From positions 1-39,084 of the forward strand of contig JACOZG010000001.1 of NCBI GenBank assembly GCA_016181465.1: a DNA stretch of 39,084 nucleotides, given 5' to 3'. Below the pieces are notes generated by a model. That model made no database searches. It was given only the letters and a program-made list of their open reading frames with translations, and was not told the DNA's origin. Positions 2,648 to 39,084 of this stretch are shown here, in pieces. The stretch comes from Candidatus Vogelbacteria bacterium (GTDB taxonomy: Bacteria > Patescibacteriota > Minisyncoccia > Phycocordibacterales > JACOZG01). The position numbers and the translations under genes are program-made. Position 1 is the stretch's first letter. Every line of letters starts with the position of its first letter.

Positions 2648-3994
2648 TTACGCCTCTTTGGCTACCTCTCTTATGGCCGCGATTCCCTTTTCGGCGTCCT
2701 TTAGCGTGTTGTAGAAGGCAAACGTGGCGCGTAGGGCTCCCTTAACACCCAACGAGTCAAAATCAGCTCCGTCTTGAAGCTCTTTAATTTTTGAATTATG
2801 CTCTTCTTGCGATACACCAAGCAACTGGGGAAGCAATAAATGCGCGCAGAAGCAGCCGTCGCGCACGCTGACTCCCAGCTTGTTGAGCTTCCGCGCTGTT
2901 TCCTCGTAATTTGTTGCCGACAAGCCAATATTAAAAGTAATCACGGCTATTCTTTCGTCAAAATCCTTGGGCCCATAGACCTCCACGCCGTTTATTTTCA
3001 AAATCTCTCCAAGAAAATACTCTCCCATGGCCCGGTCGTGGCGCTTAATGGCGTCCATGCCTATTTTGTTTAGAAAATCAATGACCAAGCCCCACTCTAT
3101 CACGCCTTCAAGATTCTGCGTGCCCGGCTCAAATCTCGCCGGGGACTCCTCGTAAGCCGTCTCGACTTTGCCGACGAGTTTCACCGCGCTGCCACCGCTG
3201 ATCTCATTGCCCAAATATTTATCGCTCTCTTTTTTTACAAACAACGCACCCATACCCATTGAGCCGTACATTTTGTGGGCGGAAACTCCCGCGAAGTCCA
3301 CGCTAAGTTCGTCAAGATTAATCGGTATGTGCCCCGCAGATTGAGCCATATCAAGATAAATAAGCGCGTTATCCGGCAGAATTTCCCTTATTTCTTTTAC
3401 TGGATTTATGACCCCAGTCACATTGGAGACATGCGCGAGCATCAACAATATTTTACCTGTCTGCCGGCGGCGATGCAGGCTCGCTTTGTTCTCGGCCGCG
3501 ATTTTACGCAAAGTGTCTAAATCCAGCCGCCCATCGGGCAACCTTACGGGAATATATTTCACATCTGCCACGGCTTTTTTCGCGTAGTTTCGCGCTGTGA
3601 GCACCTGAGAATTGTGCTCCATATCAGTGATAAGAAGAAGGTCGCCGGGCTCAAAGTTAAACCTTGACCCAAGCAGGTTGGACGCGGCTGTCGCTCCTGA
3701 AGTCAGAGCAATGTAATAATTACTGGCGCTAAAAAACCCGCTGATTTTCTGTTTTGCCTCCTCGTACCTTACCTGGTATTCCCTCGCCTCGTCTGAGTTT
3801 TCTGAATGATTGCTGCCCCTCAAGTGGTTTGTTCTGTAAACGTACATCCTGTCTATTACGCTTTTTGGCACCTGGGTTGTCGCGCCGTTATCCAGATAAA
3901 CCCTGCCGAGCTTGTCTAAATTGGGAAATTCCTTAGCGCGAATTTCTTTTATGCTCGGGAGAAGGCCGTGAAAATCTTTATTTTGCGCTGTCAT
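2648..3994 (-). CDS. Cysteine desulfurase / class V PLP aminotransferase (SufS-like)
   Basis: Motifs YLDNGATTQ, MEHNS, HVSNVTG, DMAQS, SAHKMYG (PLP Lys), RFEPGT and RDGCFCAH (catalytic Cys region). Confidence 0.9.
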   Translation of the reverse strand: MTAQNKDFHGLLPSIKEIRAKEFPNLDKLGRVYLDNGATTQVPKSVIDRMYVYRTNHLRGSNHSENSDEAREYQVRYEEAKQKISGFFSASNYYIALTSGATAASNLLGSRFNFEPGDLLLITDMEHNSQVLTARNYAKKAVADVKYIPVRLPDGRLDLDTLRKIAAENKASLHRRRQTGKILLMLAHVSNVTGVINPVKEIREILPDNALIYLDMAQSAGHIPINLDELSVDFAGVSAHKMYGSMGMGALFVKKESDKYLGNEISGGSAVKLVGKVETAYEESPARFEPGTQNLEGVIEWGLVIDFLNKIGMDAIKRHDRAMGEYFLGEILKINGVEVYGPKDFDERIAVITFNIGLSATNYEETARKLNKLGVSVRDGCFCAHLLLPQLLGVSQEEHNSKIKELQDGADFDSLGVKGALRATFAFYNTLKDAEKGIAAIREVAKEA

Positions 3995-4018
3995 ATTTAT
4001 GGTTCGTTGGCCATAATT

Positions 4019-4586
4019 TTAGTGATGGTGTTCGCTGTCGCCGCCGCAACCGTCCGAGAGATTCCAAACTTGGGTCACTTGCTCGCCAGTGAAGCCATGA
4101 TTTTTAATGAGATATTTTCCTAATCCACCGTAGACATACCATCTCCAACATTTGCAACAGCAAGGCCCTTTCTCGCTTGAATTTTGCATCGCATAGTCAT
4201 ACGCTTTCTGTTCGTCTGGCGTAAGCTCTAGGTCGTAATCCGACATAAGTTCTTTGGCGAGCCCGGCTTCGATGTCGTAAGGATCATCAGGAATTTTTTT
4301 GATGTTTTGGCTGGCAACAGATTTGAACTTTTCCAACCCTTCAACCTGTTCAGAATAGCGCTGGACGCTCATCGGACTGCAACAGGAACCTTGCAGACGG
4401 ACATCATCGGGCATGTCGGCTATTGAATCCCTAAACCCGCCCGAACATGATGAGTTGCCGTTCTTGGATAGGTAGTCAAACTTCGCCGCGAGAGCTTCGC
4501 TTACAACATGAGACGATGAGTCATTCTTTGATGATTGATTCGAGAAATGCGATAGCAACAATTGTAATTTGTAATTTTTTATTCAT
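4019..4586 (-). CDS. Cys-rich exported protein, 5' end out of frame
   Basis: Main ORF 4019-4561 has CS, CCSP, PCCCKCWRW and CGG..HHH. A signal-like MNKKLQITIVAIAFL starts at ATG 4586 in a different frame. Confidence 0.65.
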
Positions 4587-4646
4587 AGTAGATTTCTAAA
4601 GATTCAACAAACAAAATAAACTAAAATTGGCAAAAGCCCGCAAGTA

Positions 4647-5078
4647 TTAAATGTGTGCTGGTTCGTAAATTTTAGGATTGAGAATGCCGTCGGAAAACGC
4701 AACAAGAAAAGGGTCGAGAACTTTTGCGAAGTTGGCTCTACGATAAGCAAGGAATCGCACTGTAGATGCGGTTAGTTTTTTGAGTTGTGAAAATGGTTTT
4801 TTAATGAATGAGGCGAGAGTCGCGATCAACAACGCCACGGCCAGCGCAAGAAAATTCGTCTTTGTCGGTATGCCGAGAAATGCTTGTTGCCACTTGGTAA
4901 TATGCTCCGTAACATTCATTTGGCACATAGTTGCTTGACCCGCCATAAATGGACAGCCGGACATCTGGCCGTCTTTCGTCTCCATACTCATGCCCATCCC
5001 TAAAATACTCATGAAAGCGAACAAGACGAGGATAAAAATTATAAGATTTTCAGAAAGTTTTCCTCGCAAGTCGAGCAT
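4647..5078 (-). CDS. Met/Cys-rich membrane protein, first gene of the putative metal-associated operon
   Basis: Two hydrophobic segments flank MGMGMSM..MSGCPFM..MCQM..EH. Confidence 0.7.
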   Translation of the reverse strand: MLDLRGKLSENLIIFILVLFAFMSILGMGMSMETKDGQMSGCPFMAGQATMCQMNVTEHITKWQQAFLGIPTKTNFLALAVALLIATLASFIKKPFSQLKKLTASTVRFLAYRRANFAKVLDPFLVAFSDGILNPKIYEPAHI

Positions 5079-5241
5079 AGATTCACTGTATCACAAAGTT
5101 TGCTTGTGTTAAACAAATGGCAAGTAAAGAAAAGCGGCTCTTTTTCAAATCAAATCGGCGGTTTCGTGTCATAGTTCGCGTGTATGGCCACACAACACGC
5201 GAAACAAGCCCTCCGGCAAGGGGAACCCTTGCCATCAAAAA

Positions 5242-5291
5242 TGACCCCTACGAGATTTGAACTTGTGTTTTCGCCGTGAGAGGGCGATGTC
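5242..5291 (-). pseudogene. 3' fragment of a divergent tRNA-Glu(CTC)
   Basis: Minus strand GACATCGCC-CTCTCAC-GGCGA-AAAC-ACAAG-TTCAAAT-CTCGT-AGGGGTCA gives the anticodon arm, T arm and 3' acceptor strand. The 5' part is missing. Confidence 0.8.
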
Positions 5292-26716: not shown

Positions 26717-26731
26717 AAATAAAGTTTAACA

Positions 26732-28117
26732 CTATTTTGCTGGTTTTTCTATCAATTCTTCAACCTTTCTTTTGGCTTCCTCTAGCAATTGTTTCGCCTG
26801 CTTCTGCGCCTCGTGCGATTCACGCACCAGCTCCGCTATTCTTTGCTGGGTATCTTTTCTAACGATTGGAATTTTAAATTTTCTCAAGTTTTTTGCGTAG
26901 ATATATGGCTGTGCAAGGCCGCTTTTATCTCTCTCTGCTTGCATTCTTCCAACTACAGAGTTCAAACAAAAACCTAGAAAAATAGGATCAATTTTTGTCG
27001 CATCGGCCCTAATCAAATTTATGAAACTTCCAATTGCAATATCTTCGCTTTCCAAATAATTATGACAATACCCCAAATTAGCACCGACGGAATAATATAA
27101 AATATCGTTTTTCTTTACCAAATATGGCTTGTTCTTCTTTTCTTCAAAAAAAGATTTCGATACCCTTGGTTCATTATCAGCGGTCAAAAAGGAATAATCT
27201 ATTGATTTATCGCCGATCCATTTTTGAGAAAAAAATCTTACCTCCCCGTTTTCTGAATACGGAGGTTGAACACCGTTATTTATAAAGGTGGTCAAATCTT
27301 CCAAAAATTTCCACCCGATGGAATACTTTTCAATCTTTTCAATAACATCCTGAAATTTCGGCTGGAAGTATTCTGCGTCCATTCTGCTCGCCTTTTTGAC
27401 TTTGGACAGATTCACAACATTCCACAATTCCCCGCCTGCCTCGAAATCTTCCAATCCCAACTTCCCCAAAAGCACCTTTTCTGCTTGAGAGTAAAAATCT
27501 TCCGCTTTTCCCCTTTCCTGAAAAGCATCTGCCGCAATTTTGTCTACCTCTTGTATTTGCGCTACATTTGGACATGGAACAACAAAGGTCTTTATTTTGT
27601 CTATAAACAAATTGAGTTGCACATTGCCAGTAGACTCACGCACAGATTGAAATCTGCCGTACTTACTGTTCAAGAAGGTAGATAAAAAGTATGGGGAAAT
27701 AAGTTGATTGTTATGCAATCGGATTATTCCAACATGACGGTCAGCGTTTGCTGGAAGCATTGATTGGTCCACAACCGCGGCATTTCCTATCGTTCCAACT
27801 GATGACAAAAGTACATCTCCAATTTTTAGCGCTGTTCGTTTATTAACATTGTGTTGCTTTTCGGACATAAATTGTTCAACGCTTTCAAAATAGTTATCTT
27901 TAGGAGCTTGCGCAGAAAAACACCTGATGTTGCTGTCAGGATCATAATCAATAGATGCATGTATACCATCGGTAATAAATGCTAATTCGTCCAACAATTT
28001 TATTTTTTGTTTTCTTAACTTTTCGTTCAACAGAAGATACTCTGGCTGGTAATATTCCGCATCCAGCCGCTTCGCGCCTTCGAGTTGAGATTTTTGGATT
28101 GTTGAAAAAACAGCCAT
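26732..28117 (-). CDS. Restriction-modification specificity (S) subunit
   Basis: Two TRD-like halves, each opened by R(L/M)DAEY(Y/F)QP, with helical spacers. Confidence 0.88.
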   Translation of the reverse strand: MAVFSTIQKSQLEGAKRLDAEYYQPEYLLLNEKLRKQKIKLLDELAFITDGIHASIDYDPDSNIRCFSAQAPKDNYFESVEQFMSEKQHNVNKRTALKIGDVLLSSVGTIGNAAVVDQSMLPANADRHVGIIRLHNNQLISPYFLSTFLNSKYGRFQSVRESTGNVQLNLFIDKIKTFVVPCPNVAQIQEVDKIAADAFQERGKAEDFYSQAEKVLLGKLGLEDFEAGGELWNVVNLSKVKKASRMDAEYFQPKFQDVIEKIEKYSIGWKFLEDLTTFINNGVQPPYSENGEVRFFSQKWIGDKSIDYSFLTADNEPRVSKSFFEEKKNKPYLVKKNDILYYSVGANLGYCHNYLESEDIAIGSFINLIRADATKIDPIFLGFCLNSVVGRMQAERDKSGLAQPYIYAKNLRKFKIPIVRKDTQQRIAELVRESHEAQKQAKQLLEEAKRKVEELIEKPAK

Positions 28118-28119
28118 GG

Positions 28120-28755
28120 TTAATGGAGGTCGTCGGAAATCTGAATAAGCCCTGCTTTTAGTAAAATCTTTGTTGTGTTTTGTATAACGCTATAAATCAC
28201 CTTAACATTCATATCGGCTTTGGCCGTGGTATCAATTGATTCTCCATAAAAATGCGCGGGAGTGTGACGATAATTTCTCAAAAAACTTTTCATTTCTTTG
28301 ATCCTGTCCTTAACGTCTCGTTTCTCGTAAGTTGTCAACTTAGCTGTGGCATCCGCCTTCTTCTCAAGTTCCTTCAGCAACTTATCAACGTGTTTATCAA
28401 TTTTCTCTTCATCAAAATAATAAGCTCCTGCTGTATCGTTGTTTCCTGAAGACGGTAAAGCTAAGTCTTTGGCAACCTGAAAAAGAAAACCTTCTAGCGC
28501 TTTATATGCAGGCGCGGTCGCAAACGAATAATCATTAAAATATAGATCTCCTCGGTCGCGCAAAACTTTGTGGATACACATGGAATCCATAAGGTGGTTT
28601 AGTACTTTCTCGCTCAGGTAGAAAAGGACCGTTTGATCGAAAGTGCTGTCAAGACTGTCTCTCTGCTGATGGCCGCGAGCCCTTCCGAACACTTCCTCTT
28701 GGCTCCAATCTTTGCCAGATGGCAAGCGCTGATTCAATCGATAATATTTACTCAT
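28120..28755 (-). CDS. Putative HEPN ribonuclease resembling the RnlA/LsoA C-terminal domain
   Basis: DYSFATAPAYKALEGFL and an Rx4H motif (RHTPAH) in a helical protein. Confidence 0.6.
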   Translation of the reverse strand: MSKYYRLNQRLPSGKDWSQEEVFGRARGHQQRDSLDSTFDQTVLFYLSEKVLNHLMDSMCIHKVLRDRGDLYFNDYSFATAPAYKALEGFLFQVAKDLALPSSGNNDTAGAYYFDEEKIDKHVDKLLKELEKKADATAKLTTYEKRDVKDRIKEMKSFLRNYRHTPAHFYGESIDTTAKADMNVKVIYSVIQNTTKILLKAGLIQISDDLH

Positions 28756-29306
28756 ACAGTTATTAGTTTTGCTCCATCTTCCACTATTTTTTGATCGATC
28801 TGCGTGACGAGTCCCAAGTCTTGAGCCGCTACTGAACCTAGCACAGCTCCACCGCGCATCAATTTTTGGATTTCCTCGATTTCCTTTTTACATGTTTCTG
28901 CTATAACTTTCGCAATATTTTGTCTATCGATCCGCAGTCCTTCGACCCACTCAACCAATGTTGTCTCCGATAAATTGAGGGGTTGGGAAGTATTTCTAGA
29001 GATATCGTGAATTATGAATCTAGCATTAGGTACACTGATTCTTTTAGTACCCGCGCAAAAAATTACCGCAGCTATGGAGTCTACACTACCGAAATTTACG
29101 GTTTCTATTTCTTCCACCGGAATACCTTTAAGGTAGTTAAAAACACTCAAGCCAGGGTCCACAAATCCTCCAGGAGAAGAGACTAGAATGCGGAAACGCT
29201 TTACACCTTCTCGAAATTCTCTTTCAACACACTGAATCAACGCTTCGGCGGACTGATTGTCCACCTGCTTCATAAAACGAATGGTGGTTTTTTGATTCGC
29301 GGGCAT
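28752..29306 (-). CDS. ClpP-like (S14) serine protease
   Basis: SSPGGFV, GSVDSIAAVIF (Ser), KR..PNARFIIH (His) and A.DLGLV. ATG 29306 lies 7 nt after the upstream stop. Confidence 0.85.
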   Translation of the reverse strand: MPANQKTTIRFMKQVDNQSAEALIQCVEREFREGVKRFRILVSSPGGFVDPGLSVFNYLKGIPVEEIETVNFGSVDSIAAVIFCAGTKRISVPNARFIIHDISRNTSQPLNLSETTLVEWVEGLRIDRQNIAKVIAETCKKEIEEIQKLMRGGAVLGSVAAQDLGLVTQIDQKIVEDGAKLITV

Positions 29307-29313
29307 ATGACGT

Positions 29314-31266
29314 TTAGAGATTAAGTTTCTGTTCCTTTGCAAACTTCGCGAAGCCTTCTGCGATGGCGTCGAGGTCGTGGTCGAGCACTTTGCGACCTTT
29401 GCCGTCATGAACGTAATTTCCGTTTCGATCCTTTTTGTAGACATAATCTCCGGAATTATCTTTACCACCTTTTTTCGACACGGCCATAAAAATTGGATAG
29501 TCGACTTGTGATTCACCAGCCTCCTTCCCCCATTTTTGCAAGAACAGGACGCTGGTCTTTACGCCGGCGTGAGGTTTAAAAGTATTTCCATGCAATCCGA
29601 CTACAGCTAAAATTCTAGCTTTATCAAATAAATAATCTCGAATGTATTCTGCTTGTGTGTTATTCAAAATACCTTGCGGCAAAACAATCGCCATTCGCCC
29701 GCCGGGTCGAAGCATATCAAGTGCCCGTTCAATAAAAAGAATATGCCGCTCGACATTATTGCGGAGCTTACCGCTTTCCTTTTTTGCCAACTCATACTGA
29801 CGCAAAAGTCCTTGTTCCGGATTTTCCCCGGCAAAGGGCGGATTGGTCAACAGAATATCAAAATTCAGATGCCGATAGGTCAGATAATTTTCTTTATCGC
29901 TCTCGTTATTATCAAGAGTTTGCAGTAAAGATTTAAGCGCCACACGCGCCTCCTCGGCCTCCGTGCCCGTCCACTCCCGAGCGTCCAGTGAATCCCGCTT
30001 GAAAATGTGGTGCTTGCCGTCGCCGGCAATAAGCATGAGCGCCTGCGATATCCGGCGCATATTGTTATCAAAGTCAGTACCGAAAAGGTGTTTGGCCGCA
30101 TAGGCCTTTTTTGCTGGCTCGCTTTTAAGAAAATGATCCCAAACATGATACATCGTATGAAGCAGGAATCCGCCGGAGCCGCAGGCGGGATCTATCACAT
30201 ACTCGTCTTCTTTCGGACCGAGCATTTTAACGCACATTTTAACAACATGGCGCGGTGTGAAATACTGACCTCTGTTTCCTCTTGAAACCTCGGTAATAAG
30301 ATGCTCAAACGCCGCGTCAATAATTTCGTATTCTCCCTGCCCCAACTCAAACAATCGAATATCTTCCATAAACGGAACACAGATGTTAAGACGAGACGCG
30401 GTGAGCTTGATGTGGTCAGAAAGCTCGAATGTATCGGGCCACTCTTTGATTGCGTCCTTAAAAAGTCCGTTAACAACTTCATAGGTTTTCTCCGGATCTT
30501 TATATCTCCTAAACAAGATCTCTTTATTTCCTCTTTTATGGATGGCTAACTGCTCATCATAGAGCTTGGCGTAAATGAGCTTGAAAATTTCCTCAAACAC
30601 ATTCTCGCCGGAACCAGCCAGCGCTAGTTCCTCTATCCGTTTTACAATCTTAATGAAATCAAATTTGGGAGTTAAATCATTCCAGGTCTTTTTAATTTCA
30701 AACAGATCGTCCACAGTCTGATCAGCCGTGGGAATCTCGCTCAACGACTCATACTCCCGCGGATATGGGCGGTACAAAATTACTTTATCTGTGCCGTTTG
30801 ACCAAACGCCAATCTCCGAACCCTCGGCGCTTAAATATGCCTTTAATTGTTCCTGCCCCTTCTTTTCGCTTGGCGCTTTGACCTCAATAATAATATACGG
30901 CGTTATCTTATCTTTTTTGTAAACAACAATATCTGCCGCCTTAGCGTGAATTTCCCGTCCGAAATGAACACTCTTTTCCGTTTCCATCCGTTCCAGTGGA
31001 TATTTATAGTGAGTATAGAGTTTATGGAGCCAAAGCTGGCGAACGATTTCTTCCGGCTTCCCTATATTTTTCTTCGCGTCAAAAACCAAACGCTTTTTGT
31101 CACTCTTCAGATCGGTAATGAAAAAGCGATTCGGTTCGTCCTCGGTGATTTTAAGTGCTGTTTCGAATACCACATTTTCAAATTCCTTGAGCCCGTAGAG
31201 CAGTTCGTTGTCCTTAAAAATTTTCCCGATTATTTCTCCAGCTTTGTTTAGTTTTTTGGTAGGCAT
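29314..31266 (-). CDS. Fused restriction endonuclease / N6-adenine methyltransferase (Type IIG/IIB-like)
   Basis: N-terminal PEEIVRQ..ADIVV..IEVK nuclease motif, GQYFTPR, DPACGSGGFL and NPPF. Confidence 0.92.
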   Translation of the reverse strand: MPTKKLNKAGEIIGKIFKDNELLYGLKEFENVVFETALKITEDEPNRFFITDLKSDKKRLVFDAKKNIGKPEEIVRQLWLHKLYTHYKYPLERMETEKSVHFGREIHAKAADIVVYKKDKITPYIIIEVKAPSEKKGQEQLKAYLSAEGSEIGVWSNGTDKVILYRPYPREYESLSEIPTADQTVDDLFEIKKTWNDLTPKFDFIKIVKRIEELALAGSGENVFEEIFKLIYAKLYDEQLAIHKRGNKEILFRRYKDPEKTYEVVNGLFKDAIKEWPDTFELSDHIKLTASRLNICVPFMEDIRLFELGQGEYEIIDAAFEHLITEVSRGNRGQYFTPRHVVKMCVKMLGPKEDEYVIDPACGSGGFLLHTMYHVWDHFLKSEPAKKAYAAKHLFGTDFDNNMRRISQALMLIAGDGKHHIFKRDSLDAREWTGTEAEEARVALKSLLQTLDNNESDKENYLTYRHLNFDILLTNPPFAGENPEQGLLRQYELAKKESGKLRNNVERHILFIERALDMLRPGGRMAIVLPQGILNNTQAEYIRDYLFDKARILAVVGLHGNTFKPHAGVKTSVLFLQKWGKEAGESQVDYPIFMAVSKKGGKDNSGDYVYKKDRNGNYVHDGKGRKVLDHDLDAIAEGFAKFAKEQKLNL

Positions 31267-31267
31267 A

Positions 31268-31903
31268 TTATTTTATCGGTTGCCAATAATTGTTTTTAAG
31301 GATTGAAATTATTTTTCCTTTCAACTCCATCTCGTGGGTAAAAGGGATAAGTTGATATTTTGGATTTTCCGGCTTGAGATACACGTACGGCGGTTTGTCA
31401 TCGGACATAAATCGCTTGATCGTGCCTTCGTCGCCAATTTGAGCATAGACAATTTCGCCGGACACAAATTCCTTTTTAGTTTGAACCAACACCGCATCGC
31501 CATCATCAATGCCCGCATTGATCATTGAGTCGCCTGAAACTTTTAGCATAAACACTTCTTCGATTAATCTGGAAACTTCTTGAGAAACGGGTCGCCACTC
31601 GCCGGAAATTTCGATGGCTTCGGCGGGCATACCCGCCGTCGTTACGCCGAGGATTAGAACGAGCGGCGGCAAGTTAAGCAATTTGTAGCCGAGGGGCAAG
31701 ATTGCCAGAGTTCTTGCCCCCGTCTCTTTTTTAACGATTTTTAACTGCCTTAATTTTTCAAGCAGGTCCGCGACTGACTGATTGGAAGAGACACCGAGAT
31801 TCTCTCGCATTTCTGCAAAAGTTGGCGGATAGCCAGATGATTTGATAAAATCATAAATTACCCCAAGAAGTTGTTTTTGCCTTGCCGTTATTAACTTTTC
31901 CAT
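31268..31903 (-). CDS. lexA: LexA-family repressor with S24 autoprotease
   Basis: TARQ..GYPPT..E HTH, Ala-Gly cleavage site (TAGMP), GDSM Ser and TIKR Lys. Confidence 0.9.
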   Translation of the reverse strand: MEKLITARQKQLLGVIYDFIKSSGYPPTFAEMRENLGVSSNQSVADLLEKLRQLKIVKKETGARTLAILPLGYKLLNLPPLVLILGVTTAGMPAEAIEISGEWRPVSQEVSRLIEEVFMLKVSGDSMINAGIDDGDAVLVQTKKEFVSGEIVYAQIGDEGTIKRFMSDDKPPYVYLKPENPKYQLIPFTHEMELKGKIISILKNNYWQPIK

Positions 31904-31909
31904 ACTTCA

Positions 31910-31937
31910 ATCATACCCGACTATTTATTCGGGTCAA
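31910..31937 (-). promoter_or_regulatory. Promoter with overlapping inverted-repeat operator
   Basis: TTGACC-16 bp-TATGAT, 6 nt before the ATG; ACCCGA-N8-TCGGGT at 31915-31934. Confidence 0.75.
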
Positions 31938-31972
31938 TAATCTTTAGGCCTAAATTGTGGATAAGTGACGAA

Positions 31973-32953
31973 TTACCTCAAACTTACCCCCACCGCCCGG
32001 CGCACCGTCTCCATCTTCGCGCTCGCTCGCGCTCGCGCCTTTTCACTGCCGTGGCGCAAGATTTCCACCACGCGGCCGGGGTCGGTGGCGATCCCCCGCC
32101 GCTTCTCCCGCAAGGGCGCGAGATACTCGTTCATATTATTGAATAAGATCTCTTTTGATTCACGATAGCCGATTTCGCCGTTCACATAGCGGCGCTTCAA
32201 GTCCGACAAATCTTTGGCGCTGAAAAATCGGTGCAAAGCAAAAACATTGCACTCCTCGGGATTTTTCGGCTCTTTCTCCCCTTTTGAATCAGTGACAATG
32301 CTCATCACCAATTGCTTCAATTCTCGTTCATCGGCAAAAAGCGGAATGGTGTTGCGATAACTTTTAGACATTTTTTGACCGTCAAGACCGATGACGGTTT
32401 TCACTTGATCGAAAACCAATGCTTCCGGCAATTTGAAAATCTCGCCGAAAGCGCGATTGAATTTTTCGGCCGTGTCGCGCGCGATCTCCACATGCTGTTT
32501 TTGATCAAGGCCGACGGGCACAACATCGGCATCGTAAAGCAAGATGTCCGCGGCCATGAGCAGAGGATAAGTAAAGACGCCGACATTGACCTCTTTGTTT
32601 TTCGCCAGCGCGTCTTTGTAGGCATGGGCCCGAGCTAAATACGGCATGGTCGTCAAACAATTGAAAATCCAGGCGAGTTCCGTATGCTCGGGCACGGCTG
32701 ATTGCTGAAAGATCACGACTTTTTCCGGATCAAGTCCGATCGCCAGATAATCAATCGCCACATCTAAAATATCTTGCCGTAAGACCGTAGCGTCCGCGGT
32801 GCTCGTCAGCGCGTGGTAGTCGGCAATCATAATAAACGATTCGTATTCGTCCTGGAGATCGACAAATTGTTTCAACGCGCCGAAATAATTGCCAATATGC
32901 GGTCGGCCAGTGGGCTTAACGCCGGAGAGAAGAATTTTTTGCGGATTGGACAT
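31973..32953 (-). CDS. trpS: Tryptophan--tRNA ligase
   Basis: SGVKPTG.PHIGNY, YPLLMAADIL, VPVGLDQ and KMSKS. Confidence 0.97.
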   Translation of the reverse strand: MSNPQKILLSGVKPTGRPHIGNYFGALKQFVDLQDEYESFIMIADYHALTSTADATVLRQDILDVAIDYLAIGLDPEKVVIFQQSAVPEHTELAWIFNCLTTMPYLARAHAYKDALAKNKEVNVGVFTYPLLMAADILLYDADVVPVGLDQKQHVEIARDTAEKFNRAFGEIFKLPEALVFDQVKTVIGLDGQKMSKSYRNTIPLFADERELKQLVMSIVTDSKGEKEPKNPEECNVFALHRFFSAKDLSDLKRRYVNGEIGYRESKEILFNNMNEYLAPLREKRRGIATDPGRVVEILRHGSEKARARASAKMETVRRAVGVSLR

Positions 32954-35274: not shown

Positions 35275-36915
35275 TTACACCTCCACAATAAACCTCGACC
35301 CCTTCCCCGCCCCTTCGCTCTCGGCCCAAATTTTGCCGTTGTGCGCTTCCACAATTTGCTTGGCCACATAGAGCCCGAGGCCGGTGCCCTGGATATTGAT
35401 TTTGCCGGCGCCGTCGGCGCGGATAAATTTTTGAAAAAGTTTTGGCATCACGCCAGCCGGAATGCCAACACCCGAGTCAACCACGGTTAAACGAACCTTT
35501 CCATCTTTACGTTCCAGCGCCACATTGATCCAGCCTGCGAGCGTGTATTTAACCGCGTTGTCAATCAAATTGCCAACAACTTGCGCCAATTTCCCCGGGT
35601 CGCCGGTAAATTTGTAATCCGTGTCCGGCGCCGGCCCGAAACTAAATTGCAAACCGCGCTTCTCAATGCTCGGCCGCAGTTCAGTCACCACTTTATTAAC
35701 CATCTCTCGAAAATCAAATTCCTGTTTTTCATACTTCATCGTGCCGAGTTCAATCCGGCTAATGTCGAGGAAATCTTCAATCACCTGAACCAACTTCTGA
35801 CTGGATTGAAAGATAATATCAATCGCCTCACGGGCTTTCTCCTCAACCGGGCCGAACGAATTTTCCAGAATCATTGAAGTATAACCCTTGATGGCGGTGA
35901 GTGGCGCGCGCAGTTGATGCGTCGCCATGGACACAAACTCGGTTTTCATCTTATCCAACTCCTGCAATTTCTCGTTAGCCACCCACAATTTGTCGTTAGC
36001 GTGCCCTAACTCGCGCATCAGTCCCTCAATCTTCTCCCGTTGATTGACCTCCTTTTTGACCGAGCGGATGAGAAAGATGCCGGCGACCACCACTAACGCT
36101 AGAGTCAAACCGTTAACTAACCAATCAGTGAGCGTCTTGGACAGTAAAGTCGGAATCAGAATCACGAGCCACAAGGCAAAAACCAAAAGTTGGGTGGCAA
36201 TAACTTTGATGTTAAAAAGATGATGGCGAGTAATGGCGTAGGCGGTAATTCCAAGAAACAGAAGTACATAAAGTGGGGTAAGTGGTACAAAAAAGGTTGA
36301 TCCTAAAATTATTATTGGCAACAAAACAGTAAACACAATTAATAGAAACAACGCGGATAGCGCAAAAAAGACTAGTTTGATTTGGTTCTTTTGATTTGGT
36401 TCATTGAAACGATATGTTTTTCGTAATAATTCAACAACTGCCGAAACACTAAAAAAAGTTGACAATATGGTAAATGGGATAATACCCCAACCTGTTTCGA
36501 TTCCGGCCAATCCTTTTTCTACATCTACATCCTTGAAAGAAAAAGGTGATAAATTAATTAAAATTACAACGAATGTTACTAGATACAGTGTGTTTAAGAT
36601 TTTCCTAGAAATAAACGGGCGATTTTCCGGTATGACTTTTGCTAAAAGCAAGAAACCTAAACTCATTAAGATGGCAAAACTTATACTGGAACGAGCAAGT
36701 ATCAAAAATAGATTTTTATTTTCCAAAACTGTTGGCAAGAAAGCAGTGTAATTAGCACCTAACCAAAGTATTATGCTTAACCCCAAAAAAGAAAAAGCTC
36801 TGTTGCTATGAGATTTTCTATTTGAAAAAAAAACCCCTATAACCAGGATTAAACTTAATAATTGACTTATTAAGAAAATAAGAGAAAGAAGGGGGGTAAA
36901 AATTACCTCTATCAT
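35275..36915 (-). CDS. Sensor histidine kinase with multi-TM (HisKA_7TM-like) input domain
   Basis: Many TM helices, H box ATHQLRAPLT, NLIDNAVKYT, DSGVGI and GTGLGL. Confidence 0.95.
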   Translation of the reverse strand: MIEVIFTPLLSLIFLISQLLSLILVIGVFFSNRKSHSNRAFSFLGLSIILWLGANYTAFLPTVLENKNLFLILARSSISFAILMSLGFLLLAKVIPENRPFISRKILNTLYLVTFVVILINLSPFSFKDVDVEKGLAGIETGWGIIPFTILSTFFSVSAVVELLRKTYRFNEPNQKNQIKLVFFALSALFLLIVFTVLLPIIILGSTFFVPLTPLYVLLFLGITAYAITRHHLFNIKVIATQLLVFALWLVILIPTLLSKTLTDWLVNGLTLALVVVAGIFLIRSVKKEVNQREKIEGLMRELGHANDKLWVANEKLQELDKMKTEFVSMATHQLRAPLTAIKGYTSMILENSFGPVEEKAREAIDIIFQSSQKLVQVIEDFLDISRIELGTMKYEKQEFDFREMVNKVVTELRPSIEKRGLQFSFGPAPDTDYKFTGDPGKLAQVVGNLIDNAVKYTLAGWINVALERKDGKVRLTVVDSGVGIPAGVMPKLFQKFIRADGAGKINIQGTGLGLYVAKQIVEAHNGKIWAESEGAGKGSRFIVEV

Positions 36916-36921
36916 CGACTT

Positions 36922-38466
36922 TTAAAATTTAAATTCTTCTTTTCGTATTAATTCAATCACGCTTTCTATATCTACACGCATATTTCTATCTTTTTCCAAA
37001 AATGCCACTTGTTTTCTAATAAGCGCATGCACTTTTTGAGAAACTTTGCTCGTCTTTCCAATCCCCCGAATTTCCAATGCCTGTGTAGCCGACAAAAAAA
37101 CAATGGCAGTGAGCCGTTCTAAATTTTTTACAGCCTCGTAAAAATCAATAGCCGCGTGTGTTCCCAAACTATTAACATCTTGATTATCTCCTTCAGTTGG
37201 TATCATAAAATTTTGTTGTGAGTGCGCTAATTTTCTATTTTGAACCGCGAGTGCGGCTGAGAGTATTTGTATAGACTTGAAACCGTGATGGGTATTTTCT
37301 TCTATCACTAAATTATCCGGCAGGCCGCCACTTTTTCGAGAATTGTACAAATTAGCTAATATTGCATGAATCCAAGACGATGCTTGTGCTATATCAATTT
37401 TCATTATGTCCGCCGCTTCTGTAATGTAATAGCCCATAAAATTTGCAGTGTGGTAAATAGTGGATTGTTCATCAAATATAGGATTATCATTTGCTGAATT
37501 CATTTCATCCTCTATCCACTTAGTGGCTGTCTGCAAATTTTCATAAAAGGGACCGAAACCGTGAGCTAATGCTCGTAATGAATAATAATCCTGAAGACCT
37601 ATCCCTTTATTTAGAGCTTTTTTATTATTGGTTCTAATTAAACTACTGCCTGCCCATTGATCTCTAACGAAACCAGCCACCTTTTTTTGTCCATCGTGAT
37701 GTTTCTGAAGGTGGACGAATGGTTTATACCCATCATCGTAAATACGCAGAGATTCTAGGGTCATAGCAATACCGCGGAGGAGTTGAGGGAAAATTATTTT
37801 TAAATCATGCATTGCTAAAGAAGAAATCGCCGTCATAAAAGAAGTGCCATTCATCAAGGCCAATCCATCTCTTGACTCGATACTCATTAACTTAATACTG
37901 AATTTTTTAAAAATATCATGTGTCTTTTTCTTTTCATTACCCAATAGCGCGTATTCACTAAAACCAAATAAAACAGAGGCAATGGCTGATAATGGTATTA
38001 AATCGCCACTGGCGCCTATTGAACCATAACGATAAATAATGGGGTGAATATGGTAGTTGAGAAATTTTACAAGCATATCTATAATTTCTGGCCTCACGCC
38101 GGAACAACCACGAGCTAGACTGTTAGCCCTCAAAAGCATGGTTGCTCGTATTACATCTATTGATACAATATCACCCAAACCACATTCAAAAGATTTAATG
38201 AGGTTTTCTTGTCTTTCTCTGATAGATTGTCGATATATCTTATCTTCGGCCCCTAGTTTGTTATCAAAGATATGTCCCTGGCTACCAAACTGTGTAGATA
38301 AACCATAAATAGGTATCCTTTTCACTTGCAATTGTTCTAGAATTTTATAAGATCTTTCTGCTAATTTCTTATCCTTAAACAGAACACTGGCCATATTACG
38401 GGCTACCTCATGACACTCATCGAGTTTTAGATATTTTTTACCATCTATGATTATTGACTTCTTCAT
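36922..38466 (-). CDS. Aromatic amino acid ammonia-lyase (HAL/PAL/TAL family)
   Basis: IYGLSTQFG, GSIGASGDL (MIO motif), NGTS, QDYYSLR, NDNP and NQDVNS. Confidence 0.93.
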   Translation of the reverse strand: MKKSIIIDGKKYLKLDECHEVARNMASVLFKDKKLAERSYKILEQLQVKRIPIYGLSTQFGSQGHIFDNKLGAEDKIYRQSIRERQENLIKSFECGLGDIVSIDVIRATMLLRANSLARGCSGVRPEIIDMLVKFLNYHIHPIIYRYGSIGASGDLIPLSAIASVLFGFSEYALLGNEKKKTHDIFKKFSIKLMSIESRDGLALMNGTSFMTAISSLAMHDLKIIFPQLLRGIAMTLESLRIYDDGYKPFVHLQKHHDGQKKVAGFVRDQWAGSSLIRTNNKKALNKGIGLQDYYSLRALAHGFGPFYENLQTATKWIEDEMNSANDNPIFDEQSTIYHTANFMGYYITEAADIMKIDIAQASSWIHAILANLYNSRKSGGLPDNLVIEENTHHGFKSIQILSAALAVQNRKLAHSQQNFMIPTEGDNQDVNSLGTHAAIDFYEAVKNLERLTAIVFLSATQALEIRGIGKTSKVSQKVHALIRKQVAFLEKDRNMRVDIESVIELIRKEEFKF

Positions 38467-38473
38467 ATTTTAT

Positions 38474-39084
38474 TTAACTAATTTTACCCAGAAACATTCT
38501 CGGTTTTTTACCGGCAATTTGAATCATTGATTTTTTTCTTACTTGAAACATTGTTGGATTTTGAAATTCAAATAAAAGAATGTTGGGCTCCACTATTTCT
38601 CCGTAGGTCCCATGTAACTTCCGAAATTCTGAACTAAAGTTAAGCAAATTCTTAGTGATAGATTTTTTGATTATTAGCTTGTTCCTCTCTGTAATACTGA
38701 TACCTTTAGCAAGTTCAACCCTTATGAATAACTTTTGTTTTTTTAACTCACCTTCAGTGTAAGTTACGTAGGCGCCTGTTACTAAATTTATTGTATTATC
38801 GGTTTTTAAACCACCATAAATATATTTAGGAAAAATATTTATTGCATAAAATAAAATCATTACATCTAATCTACCAGTTAAAATTAGAAGTGGTTGTTGA
38901 GTTTGTTTAGTTACTAAAGGCATAGTTTTTGCGTATAGCCTATTTTTCCCGAAAAGGTTTTTCAATTCAGTGAAAGAAAAAACGCGCCCAGTATCTTTTA
39001 TGCCATATCGCACAAGCGGTATACCACCGTTAGTGGTTAGTAGAAGTTCTGACTTTTGCTCTTCAAAATAAATTATAGATGGAT
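38474..39084 (-). CDS. Phenylacetate-CoA ligase-like adenylating enzyme, C-terminal part (runs off the window)
   Basis: The frame is open to the window edge: YFEE..ELLLTT..GIPLVRYGIKDTG, then LTGRLD, INIFP and a terminal GKKPR. Confidence 0.75.
   Translation of the reverse strand, partial: PSIIYFEEQKSELLLTTNGGIPLVRYGIKDTGRVFSFTELKNLFGKNRLYAKTMPLVTKQTQQPLLILTGRLDVMILFYAINIFPKYIYGGLKTDNTINLVTGAYVTYTEGELKKQKLFIRVELAKGISITERNKLIIKKSITKNLLNFSSEFRKLHGTYGEIVEPNILLFEFQNPTMFQVRKKSMIQIAGKKPRMFLGKIS

Follow-up and report, generated by a model that had tools for sequence, protein, structure and literature searches.

A LexA-headed restriction-modification cassette with a variable cargo slot in a Candidatus Vogelbacteria genome

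Five genes of an inserted island

The window analysed here is the whole 39,084-nt stretch of contig JACOZG010000001.1 from a Candidatus Vogelbacteria bacterium, one of the bacteria of the Candidate Phyla Radiation (CPR); all coordinates are positions in this stretch, and the host assembly amounts to 644 kb in 48 contigs and is 91% complete. Between trpS and aspS the window holds an inserted island with five tightly packed genes, which code for a LexA-like repressor, a restriction-modification (RM) fusion protein, a ClpP-like serine peptidase, a HEPN protein and a specificity (S) subunit:

26731 to 31985, minus strand: inserted island of ~5.25 kb, delimited by low GC, trpS/aspS adjacency in relatives and reading of the junctions
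31903 to 31268, minus strand: LexA-like repressor, 211 aa (Pfam LexA_DNA_bind and Peptidase_S24)
31266 to 29314, minus strand: RM fusion, 650 aa (Pfam HSDR_N_2 and N6_Mtase)
29306 to 28752, minus strand: ClpP-like serine peptidase, 184 aa (Pfam CLP_protease PF00574, 72.3 bits against a cutoff of 20.2)
28755 to 28120, minus strand: HEPN protein, 211 aa (Pfam RnlA-toxin_DBD PF19034, 27.0 bits, exactly the cutoff of 27)
28117 to 26732, minus strand: S subunit, 461 aa (Pfam Methylase_S in two stretches; two target-recognition domains)

Gaps of 1 nt separate the LexA-like and RM genes, 7 nt the RM and ClpP-like genes, and 2 nt the HEPN and S genes, while the ClpP-like and HEPN genes overlap by ATGA. 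The open reading frame (ORF) listed for the ClpP-like protein starts at a GTG and overlaps the RM gene; its likely start is the ATG 7 nt past the RM stop. The GC content is 0.38-0.46 within the island, compared with about 0.50-0.53 in the flanks. An initial annotation of this DNA had described a LexA-led RM operon of five co-directional genes, AT-richer than its surroundings and inserted between trpS and aspS, and all of this is borne out by the gene positions, the drop in GC, the Pfam matches of the LexA-like and RM proteins, the TIGR00498 match of the former, and the adjacency of trpS and aspS in three of five same-genus genomes.

The RM fusion joins an N-terminal PD-(D/E)xK nuclease domain to a gamma-type N6-adenine methyltransferase, and all 13 homologues compared keep the nuclease residues D112, E128 and K130 unchanged. 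Among solved sequences RM.BsaXI comes closest (8w0p, E 1.2e-30), in a match that spans only the methylase part (residues 218-585). In PADLOC, the fusion matches the MTase_I model PDLC03034 (E 1e-162) and the S protein matches Specificity_I; no hsdR is present in the island, and a search of the 91%-complete assembly with TIGR00348 gave no match either. Because RM.BsaXI is the best solved match, the nuclease motif is invariant and no hsdR was found, the two proteins are best read as a BcgI/BsaXI-like Type IIB system, closer to Type IIB than to Type I. As in BsaXI and BcgI, a nuclease-methylase fusion is paired with a separate S subunit; for the present enzyme, two-sided cleavage is a prediction from sequence. 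We know of no LexA-type leader or cargo slot described for the known BsaXI/BcgI enzymes. The fusion and the S subunit also resemble MAD2 and MAD5 of the MADS defence system; membership was rejected, as their scores (314.6 against 720 bits for MAD2, 123.4 against 400 for MAD5) are far under the NCBIfam cutoffs, and the other three proteins have no MADS match.

The LexA-like protein consists of a winged-helix DNA-binding domain and an S24 self-cleaving peptidase domain, as identified with Pfam, and matches TIGR00498 at about 136.4-136.9 bits (cutoff 110.95). A second, better-scoring lexA (183.9 bits) lies on contig C27 and is 32% identical to the cassette copy; on these grounds, the cassette copy is a dedicated paralogue of the housekeeping LexA and not the SOS master regulator of the cell. 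All 11 cassette copies share Ala90-Gly91, Ser126 and Lys163, and recA is present in the genome; as judged by these positions, the repressor keeps all residues needed for RecA-stimulated self-cleavage. Upstream of the gene we find two features:

31910 to 31937, minus strand: sigma-70-like promoter, TTGACC-16 nt-TATGAT, matching at 10/12, better than any other in the region
31916 to 31933, minus strand: 18-bp palindrome CCCGA-N8-TCGGG in the promoter spacer, a putative operator of the LexA-like repressor

By eye, a CYGAC-N6-GTCRG-like palindrome can be seen at the same place in most of 11 cassette promoters, and the full 18-mer of the window occurs once in the genome; the LexA-like protein thus probably binds the palindrome inside its own promoter. 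A similar palindrome was not seen ahead of recA; in the case of the housekeeping lexA, the contig breaks off 43 nt upstream of the gene. Only 6 nt lie between the end of the -10 hexamer and the LexA-like ATG, and no Shine-Dalgarno sequence precedes the start (positions 31903-31915), so that the mRNA may be leaderless; three related cassettes (L005, L009 and L047) carry a GGAGG leader instead.

The HEPN protein carries the motif RHTPAH (R163-x4-H168). All 29 aligned homologues, of 48-86% identity, keep R163 and H168 unchanged; E88 is likewise invariant. A role of the Rx4-6H motif has been reported for RnlA (PMC8266594). The family comprises 56 close homologues and 48 representative clusters, with members of about 200 aa, and the hosts given in public records are Parcubacteria, Saccharibacteria, Berkelbacteria, Staskawiczbacteria and related CPR groups. 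Searched against PDB sequences, the family profile matched LsoA alone (E 5.6e-6). An AlphaFold2 (AF2) model of the protein (pLDDT 79.9) is helical only; compared with 48,161 chains in VIA-align, it fits RnlA 7aex with Z 11.0 (145 residues aligned, root-mean-square deviation 3.5), LsoA 5hy3 with Z 10.9 and RnlA 6y2r with Z 10.4, the next other HEPN domains following at Z <=8.6. A Foldseek search of the PDB yielded nothing at E <=0.001, with RnlA and LsoA appearing at probabilities of 0.91-0.97. The Pfam match at cutoff, the sequence profile and the modelled fold together support the view that this is a solo RnlA/LsoA-class HEPN protein with an intact Rx4H motif, in agreement with the RnlA-like HEPN protein of the initial annotation.

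Searches of PHROGs and NCBIfam gave no match to the HEPN protein, and neither did the plasmids and viral contigs searched; the other 400 genomes of the phylum sample contain no close homologue, only distant matches of <=31 bits. Pfam detects no ABC- or Rad50-like ATPase domain in the protein, and no RnlB-type antitoxin gene adjoins it, its neighbours being the ClpP-like and S genes. PADLOC assigns none of the LexA-like, ClpP-like and HEPN proteins to a credible family (best weak matches E 0.003-0.03); the combination had not been recognised as a named system, and the PADLOC run gives none for the ClpP-like or HEPN protein. Distant relatives of ~170 aa (L014, L018, L019 and L023) share the pattern DYSF..FP.AKA.EGFL and adjoin a ~215-aa membrane protein; such relatives occupy conserved non-RM contexts in other CPR families and are found, for example, in five of five genomes of family f21.

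In the ClpP-like protein and its relatives the catalytic Ser and His are invariant, while the column of the third triad residue, Asp in the canonical enzyme, holds Gly, Arg or Thr (Gly in the window copy). Compared with the ClpP of the same genome, the protein is short of about 20 residues at its N-terminus. Among solved proteins PpClpP1 (9UXT) is the nearest, matched by the profile at 112.8 bits compared with <=75.6 for canonical ClpPs; the Foldseek TM-scores are 0.90/0.91 over 183 columns at 23% identity, and Pro151 of 9UXT is the aligned counterpart of the Gly in the third triad position. By sequence comparison and model, the protein is an N-truncated Ser-His ClpP paralogue closest to PpClpP1; assignment to canonical ClpP (MEROPS S14) was rejected, as an acidic third triad residue and the axial N-terminus are both missing. 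PpClpP1 is described as N-truncated and of low activity, with a wide pore and no binding of ClpX, and forms mixed tetradecamers with a canonical paralogue (PMC12900304). The two proteins are alike in being short (~183 aa), in lacking the N-terminal axial region and in combining Ser and His with a non-acidic third residue; they differ in setting, since PpClpP1 is presented in that source as a chromosomal paralogue of Pseudomonas plecoglossicida studied as a partner of ClpP2, not as part of a defence cassette (PMC12900304). The window's genome encodes a canonical clpP; a search of the 91%-complete assembly for clpX gave nothing above cutoff.

The closest homologues of the ClpP-like protein (P0104-P0111) are 55-71% identical to it, and the subfamily is widespread in non-CPR bacteria at about 45% identity. 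In three other CPR genomes it is a solitary gene without RM or HEPN neighbours, and it occurs on six viral contigs away from such genes. Matches on plasmids are mostly canonical ClpP, apart from one stand-alone gene of 28% identity on an Enterobacter phage-plasmid. On the viral contig L173 (4180-7410, high GC), a relative of 46% identity lies between two ORFs that we read, by their motifs, as putative DNA methylases.

Related cassettes and the RM-S slot

Related loci were gathered in two ways, with ORFs predicted by a simple script so that start positions are approximate. Scans seeded on the HEPN protein recovered 8 loci from genomes and 20 from metagenomes, which reduce to 24 distinct loci including the window once copies are removed (L036 = L006, L051 = L009, L044 = L045 = L046, and L047 = L049). 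Scans seeded on the LexA-like protein covered a 401-genome sample of the phylum, with 245 bits or more taken as cassette-type, and a 401-genome sample of the class. Within the samples examined, the cassette family is confined to CPR bacteria.

A BsaXI-like RM gene lies upstream of the HEPN gene in 14 of the 24 distinct loci. The order LexA-RM-HEPN-S is found in 10 of these 14 cassettes, the contigs of the other four being cut inside the RM gene. Nothing lies between RM and HEPN in nine of the 14, and in the minimal cassettes RM, HEPN and S follow each other at a spacing of a few bases. A ClpP-like gene occupies the RM-HEPN gap in two, the window and L050, whose ClpP-like proteins are 46% identical to each other; in L050 only 1 nt separates this gene from HEPN. 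In L010 a Trypsin_2 peptidase (E 1.6e-19), non-homologous to the ClpP-like protein, is encoded 5 nt upstream of HEPN. Two further cassettes have other genes in this gap, for a DUF3800 protein (L040) and for a 182-aa protein with a weak PBECR3 match (L043), and four (L005, L037, L038 and L047) have genes of 161-301 aa without known function between HEPN and S. The initial annotation had treated the ClpP-like and HEPN genes as a pair, to be sought elsewhere. The pair does recur, in L050; it is absent from the other 12 of the 14 HEPN cassettes and is thus not a fixed unit.

The HEPN gene also travels with other company. In L006 it accompanies LexA, two N6_N4 methylases and an HNH/AlwI-like nuclease; in L039 it is divergent from a 500-aa fusion of LexA, S24 and methylase domains, and in L053 from a LexA-like gene. 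Five loci (L011, L012, L042, L052 and L054) have no RM gene near HEPN. Fusions of LexA (DNA-binding and S24 domains) with an N6_N4 methylase, 478-544 aa in length, were seen in L039 (3587-5089), L168 (5653-7287) and L169 (5483-6919); such a fusion of self-cleaving repressor and methylase is unusual.

Seeding on the LexA-like protein recovers the same carrier with different cargo. In the phylum sample, eight other genomes have a cassette-type LexA-like gene, and in 8/8 an RM or methylase gene directly follows it (six BsaXI-like with S, two N6_N4 methylases). The class sample added 12 others: nine BsaXI-like with S, two LexA-methylase fusions, and one (L163) without a match to the RM or S queries. 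This HEPN protein and the ClpP-like protein are absent from all 15 BsaXI-like cassettes found in this way (tblastn, E <=1e-4); HEPN is therefore not a fixed part of the cassette but one of many alternative cargoes. One of the 15 RM-S slots is empty and the rest carry cargo: NYN (two), DUF3800 (two), DUF6119, DUF2806, DUF4145 (a HEPN family), a weakly AbiU2-like protein, relatives of the L005 and L043 proteins of unknown function, and several proteins without a family. In L162 (genome G443, 2713-5258), an SMODS/AGS_C nucleotidyltransferase, a SLATT_4 effector with two transmembrane segments and a 192-aa protein are encoded between RM and S; this cargo is a module like CBASS (cyclic-oligonucleotide-based antiphage signalling system) inside an RM operon. 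Over the HEPN- and LexA-seeded sets together, a ClpP-like gene is present in 2 of 29 BsaXI-like cassettes.

As the contents of the slot differ among cassettes, the conserved unit is LexA-like, RM and S, with a hypervariable RM-S junction, which is best read as a slot for swapped accessory defence effectors. DUF3800 proteins sit in the slot of three cassettes (L140 2672-3472, L141 4647-5594 and L040 3483-4358), and two of the three show a faint match to RnlA_toxin_N (E 0.011-0.016) that is under the cutoff. In three other loci (L037 3640-4044, L160 7996-8379 and L165 761-1174), a small conserved ORF of 127-137 aa, to which Pfam has no match, separates the LexA-like gene from the RM gene.

How the cassette may work, and alternatives

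We favour, with a little more confidence than doubt, the view that the island is a mobile, LexA-type-regulated Type IIB RM carrier, of a kind typical of CPR bacteria, with a hypervariable slot for defence cargo, in which the ClpP-like gene is optional. Basal transcription of the operon would provide methylation and restriction. DNA damage and RecA filaments arising during infection would cause the LexA-like repressor to cleave itself, raising expression of the whole operon; the Type IIB enzyme would restrict incoming DNA as the first line, and the HEPN RNase, by analogy with PrrC, would be a second line, halting translation once restriction has failed. The ClpP-like protein would be add-on cargo and not a required gate for the RNase. 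A layered defence had been proposed for this locus from the start, and it fits both the literature on HEPN proteins in RM operons (PMC3710099) and the presence of defence cargo such as SMODS and SLATT in the same slot.

Several points weigh against this interpretation. RnlA is reported to require its TBP-like N-terminal domain (TBP, the TATA-binding protein) for substrate binding and activity (PMC8266594), whereas the present protein, with 211 aa and no match to RnlA_toxin_N, lacks the N-terminal TBP-like domains (NTD and NRD); the HEPN protein may therefore have little RNase activity or be activated in another way. Going by a profile alignment to LsoA, the putative counterpart of Glu258 of RnlA is the invariant E88, and that of RnlA Arg255 is an invariant lysine, K85. 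No antitoxin or other inhibitor of HEPN was identified, and the minimal cassettes leave no room for one. The operator is proposed on grounds of conservation only: a strict genome search for CYGACN6GTCRG found no regulon, its three sites per strand equalling the reversed-control count, and the same search missed the variant of the palindrome in the window itself. Finally, peptidases occur only in HEPN cassettes (3 of 14 compared with 0 of 15, a one-sided chance of about 0.10), which leans towards a connection that the favoured view takes to be incidental; the HEPN- and LexA-seeded samples were gathered differently and cannot be compared directly, however, and genomes that are related do not count as independent.

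This last point leads to the explanation contained in the initial annotation, namely that the ClpP-like and HEPN proteins form a single two-gene effector: on a block of RM or on DNA damage, the protease would gate the RNase, either activating it or taking away an inhibitor. The intimate spacing of the two genes in the window and in L050 and the skewed count of peptidases speak for it, with the caveat on sampling just given, and multi-gene systems such as the SMODS and SLATT pair of L162 do occupy the slot elsewhere; the non-homologous Trypsin_2 peptidase directly upstream of HEPN in L010, at the same position, is a hint in the same direction. As to gating, however, the pairing is not obligate, with nine of the 14 HEPN cassettes having an empty RM-HEPN gap and two having unrelated genes there (DUF3800 and the 182-aa protein); the ClpP-like subfamily is also solitary in three CPR genomes and on six viral contigs, and its closest solved relative is described as a low-activity paralogue that mixes with canonical ClpP (PMC12900304). 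The idea of a protease-gated RNase is thus weakly supported, and we consider the two-gene effector unlikely. A more elaborate version seems to us a shade less likely still: a damage-triggered two-tier module in which a truncated ClpP or trypsin-like peptidase licenses the solo HEPN protein, with no separate antitoxin. Restriction, or its failure, would generate RecA filaments, the repressor would cut itself and the operon would be boosted; in the elaborated cassettes, the wide-pore truncated ClpP would then switch on the RNase and arrest the cell.

Alternatively, the ClpP-like protein might serve the carrier, degrading an RM enzyme that attacks unmodified host DNA or clearing the fragments of cleaved LexA. 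There are precedents for both, in that HsdR of EcoKI is reported to be degraded by ClpXP during restriction alleviation (PMC4231737) and ClpX to be needed to inactivate the self-cleaved CI repressor in S. aureus (PMC10584840); moreover, the ClpP-like gene begins 7 nt after the RM gene, and the relative on L173 lies between two putative methylases, as read from their motifs. Yet the carrier evidently does not need the ClpP-like protein, which is present in only 2 of 29 BsaXI-like cassettes; the protein lacks the N-terminal region by which canonical ClpP docks unfoldases, and there is no clpX above cutoff in the 91%-complete assembly. We regard such a role as improbable.

It is more improbable that the HEPN protein is no toxin at all, but a non-lethal RNA-binding or RM-accessory protein, the cargo genes being passengers without a role in defence. 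The missing TBP-like domains that RnlA is reported to need (PMC8266594), the absence of an antitoxin, and the occurrence of ~170-aa distant relatives in conserved non-RM contexts, as in all five genomes of family f21, would agree with this. Against it stand the invariance of R163, H168 and E88 across 29 homologues at 48-86% identity, the patchy distribution of the family, with no close homologue in the other 400 genomes of the phylum, and the recognised defence and toxin domains in the same slot elsewhere.

That the LexA-like protein is instead a labile antitoxin, which binds and silences HEPN until released by self-cleavage, is hardly credible: Type II antitoxins are typically labile autorepressors and the LexA-like protein is the sole partner kept when the RM type changes (L006, L039 and L053), but it heads 15 cassettes without this HEPN protein, which points to regulation of the carrier as its conserved job, and the two genes lie 2 kb apart and not side by side. 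A predicted complex of the LexA-like and HEPN proteins scored 0.05 against a mark of 0.32, a figure that, obtained without controls, speaks neither for nor against binding.

It is already established that RM operons can carry embedded toxins, as with PrrC, the HEPN clades and DarTG2. At least 16 HEPN clades have been linked to RM systems, with the analogy to PrrC made explicit, and a HEPN RNase in an RM operon is proposed to be a second line once restriction is defeated (PMC3710099). The parallel with PrrC drawn early on for this locus stands as far as the position of a HEPN RNase gene inside an RM operon is concerned. It does not extend to the architecture: PrrC of the EcoprrI Type Ic locus has an N-terminal ABC-type ATPase and accompanies hsdMSR, whereas here a 211-aa solo HEPN without an ATPase domain is combined with a Type IIB-like RM system and a LexA-type head. 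With RnlA-RnlB and LsoA-LsoB of E. coli the protein shares the HEPN subfamily, by Pfam, profile and fold, as well as the Rx4H motif and, probably, E258, the putative counterpart of which is E88; those, however, are two-gene toxin-antitoxin (TA) modules, while the present protein is embedded in an RM operon, has no TBP-like domains and no RnlB-type gene beside it, and probably carries Lys in place of Arg255. RptR heads a repressor-led Type I RM island with embedded DarTG2 in enteropathogenic E. coli (PMC12255303). That island is similar in that a small repressor heads the operon and binds its own promoter, and the RM genes enclose a toxin system; it differs, as described in this source, in a repressor without a self-cleaving peptidase, in the type of RM (Type I) and in a DNA ADP-ribosylating TA pair that includes the antitoxin (PMC12255303).

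What differs from these precedents is the LexA-type self-cleaving repressor, the Type IIB-like carrier, the solo RnlA/LsoA-class HEPN without an antitoxin and the unusually diverse slot. Word searches of the open-access literature found no published LexA-led RM operon and no ClpP-like plus HEPN arrangement, which is not proof that none exists. The main value of the locus, in our view, is the cassette family with its cargo slot and not the ClpP-HEPN pair. CPR bacteria have tiny genomes with few recognised defences, and the cassette would pack several layers into about 5 kb: one RM carrier under a signal-responsive repressor exchanges RNases, a cyclic-nucleotide system, peptidases and many genes without known function. 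The slot may thus serve as a discovery tool, since genes between RM and S are strong candidates for new defence effectors; candidates without a family include proteins of 301/273 aa, 182/183 aa, 160/159 aa and 190-323 aa. The locus also provides a simple test case for LexA-type coupling of restriction to a DNA-damage signal, and poses the question of how a solo RnlA-class HEPN protein stays harmless without an antitoxin.

The insertion site and minor observations

The borders of the island can be read in some detail, with three features outside the five genes:

32956 to 31973: trpS flank
26716 to 25325: aspS flank
26717 to 26730, minus strand: relic of the ancestral trpS 3' end and of the spacer before the aspS ATG, matched by eye to L061

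In three of five same-genus genomes (G401, G402 and G403), aspS starts <=13 nt from the trpS stop; in G404 the contig ends at trpS, and G405 has an N6_N4 methylase gene at this spot. Compared by eye, the right junction retains the ancestral trpS end and spacer as in the same-genus locus L061, minus one base. Because the right junction keeps this ancestral copy, the island must have entered the last trpS codons, and it supplies a new trpS 3' end. No convincing terminator was found between trpS, the island and aspS, and read-through may therefore be possible in both directions. The trpS-aspS junction looks like a recurrent insertion spot in its own right, given the methylase in G405 and gaps of at least 200 nt in several family members (L058 and others).

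One more element marks the upstream end of the island:

31956 to 31964, minus strand: the motif TTATCCACA

This motif lies 20-35 nt upstream of the cassette -35 box, as an exact match in 6 of 11 loci, while three more differ from it at one base. The genome holds 38 copies, compared with 2 for the reversed control, and 27 of the 38 are outside ORFs of at least 100 aa; being enriched genome-wide, TTATCCACA is not specific to the island. It resembles a DnaA box, and may be either a DnaA-type site or an element that generally lies close to promoters in CPR bacteria.

A second stretch of low GC (0.33-0.37) is found in the window at 35275-39082. Its genes code for a histidine kinase of 7TM (seven-transmembrane) type, for an aromatic amino acid lyase and for a protein of 179 aa without a family; this may be another acquired segment.

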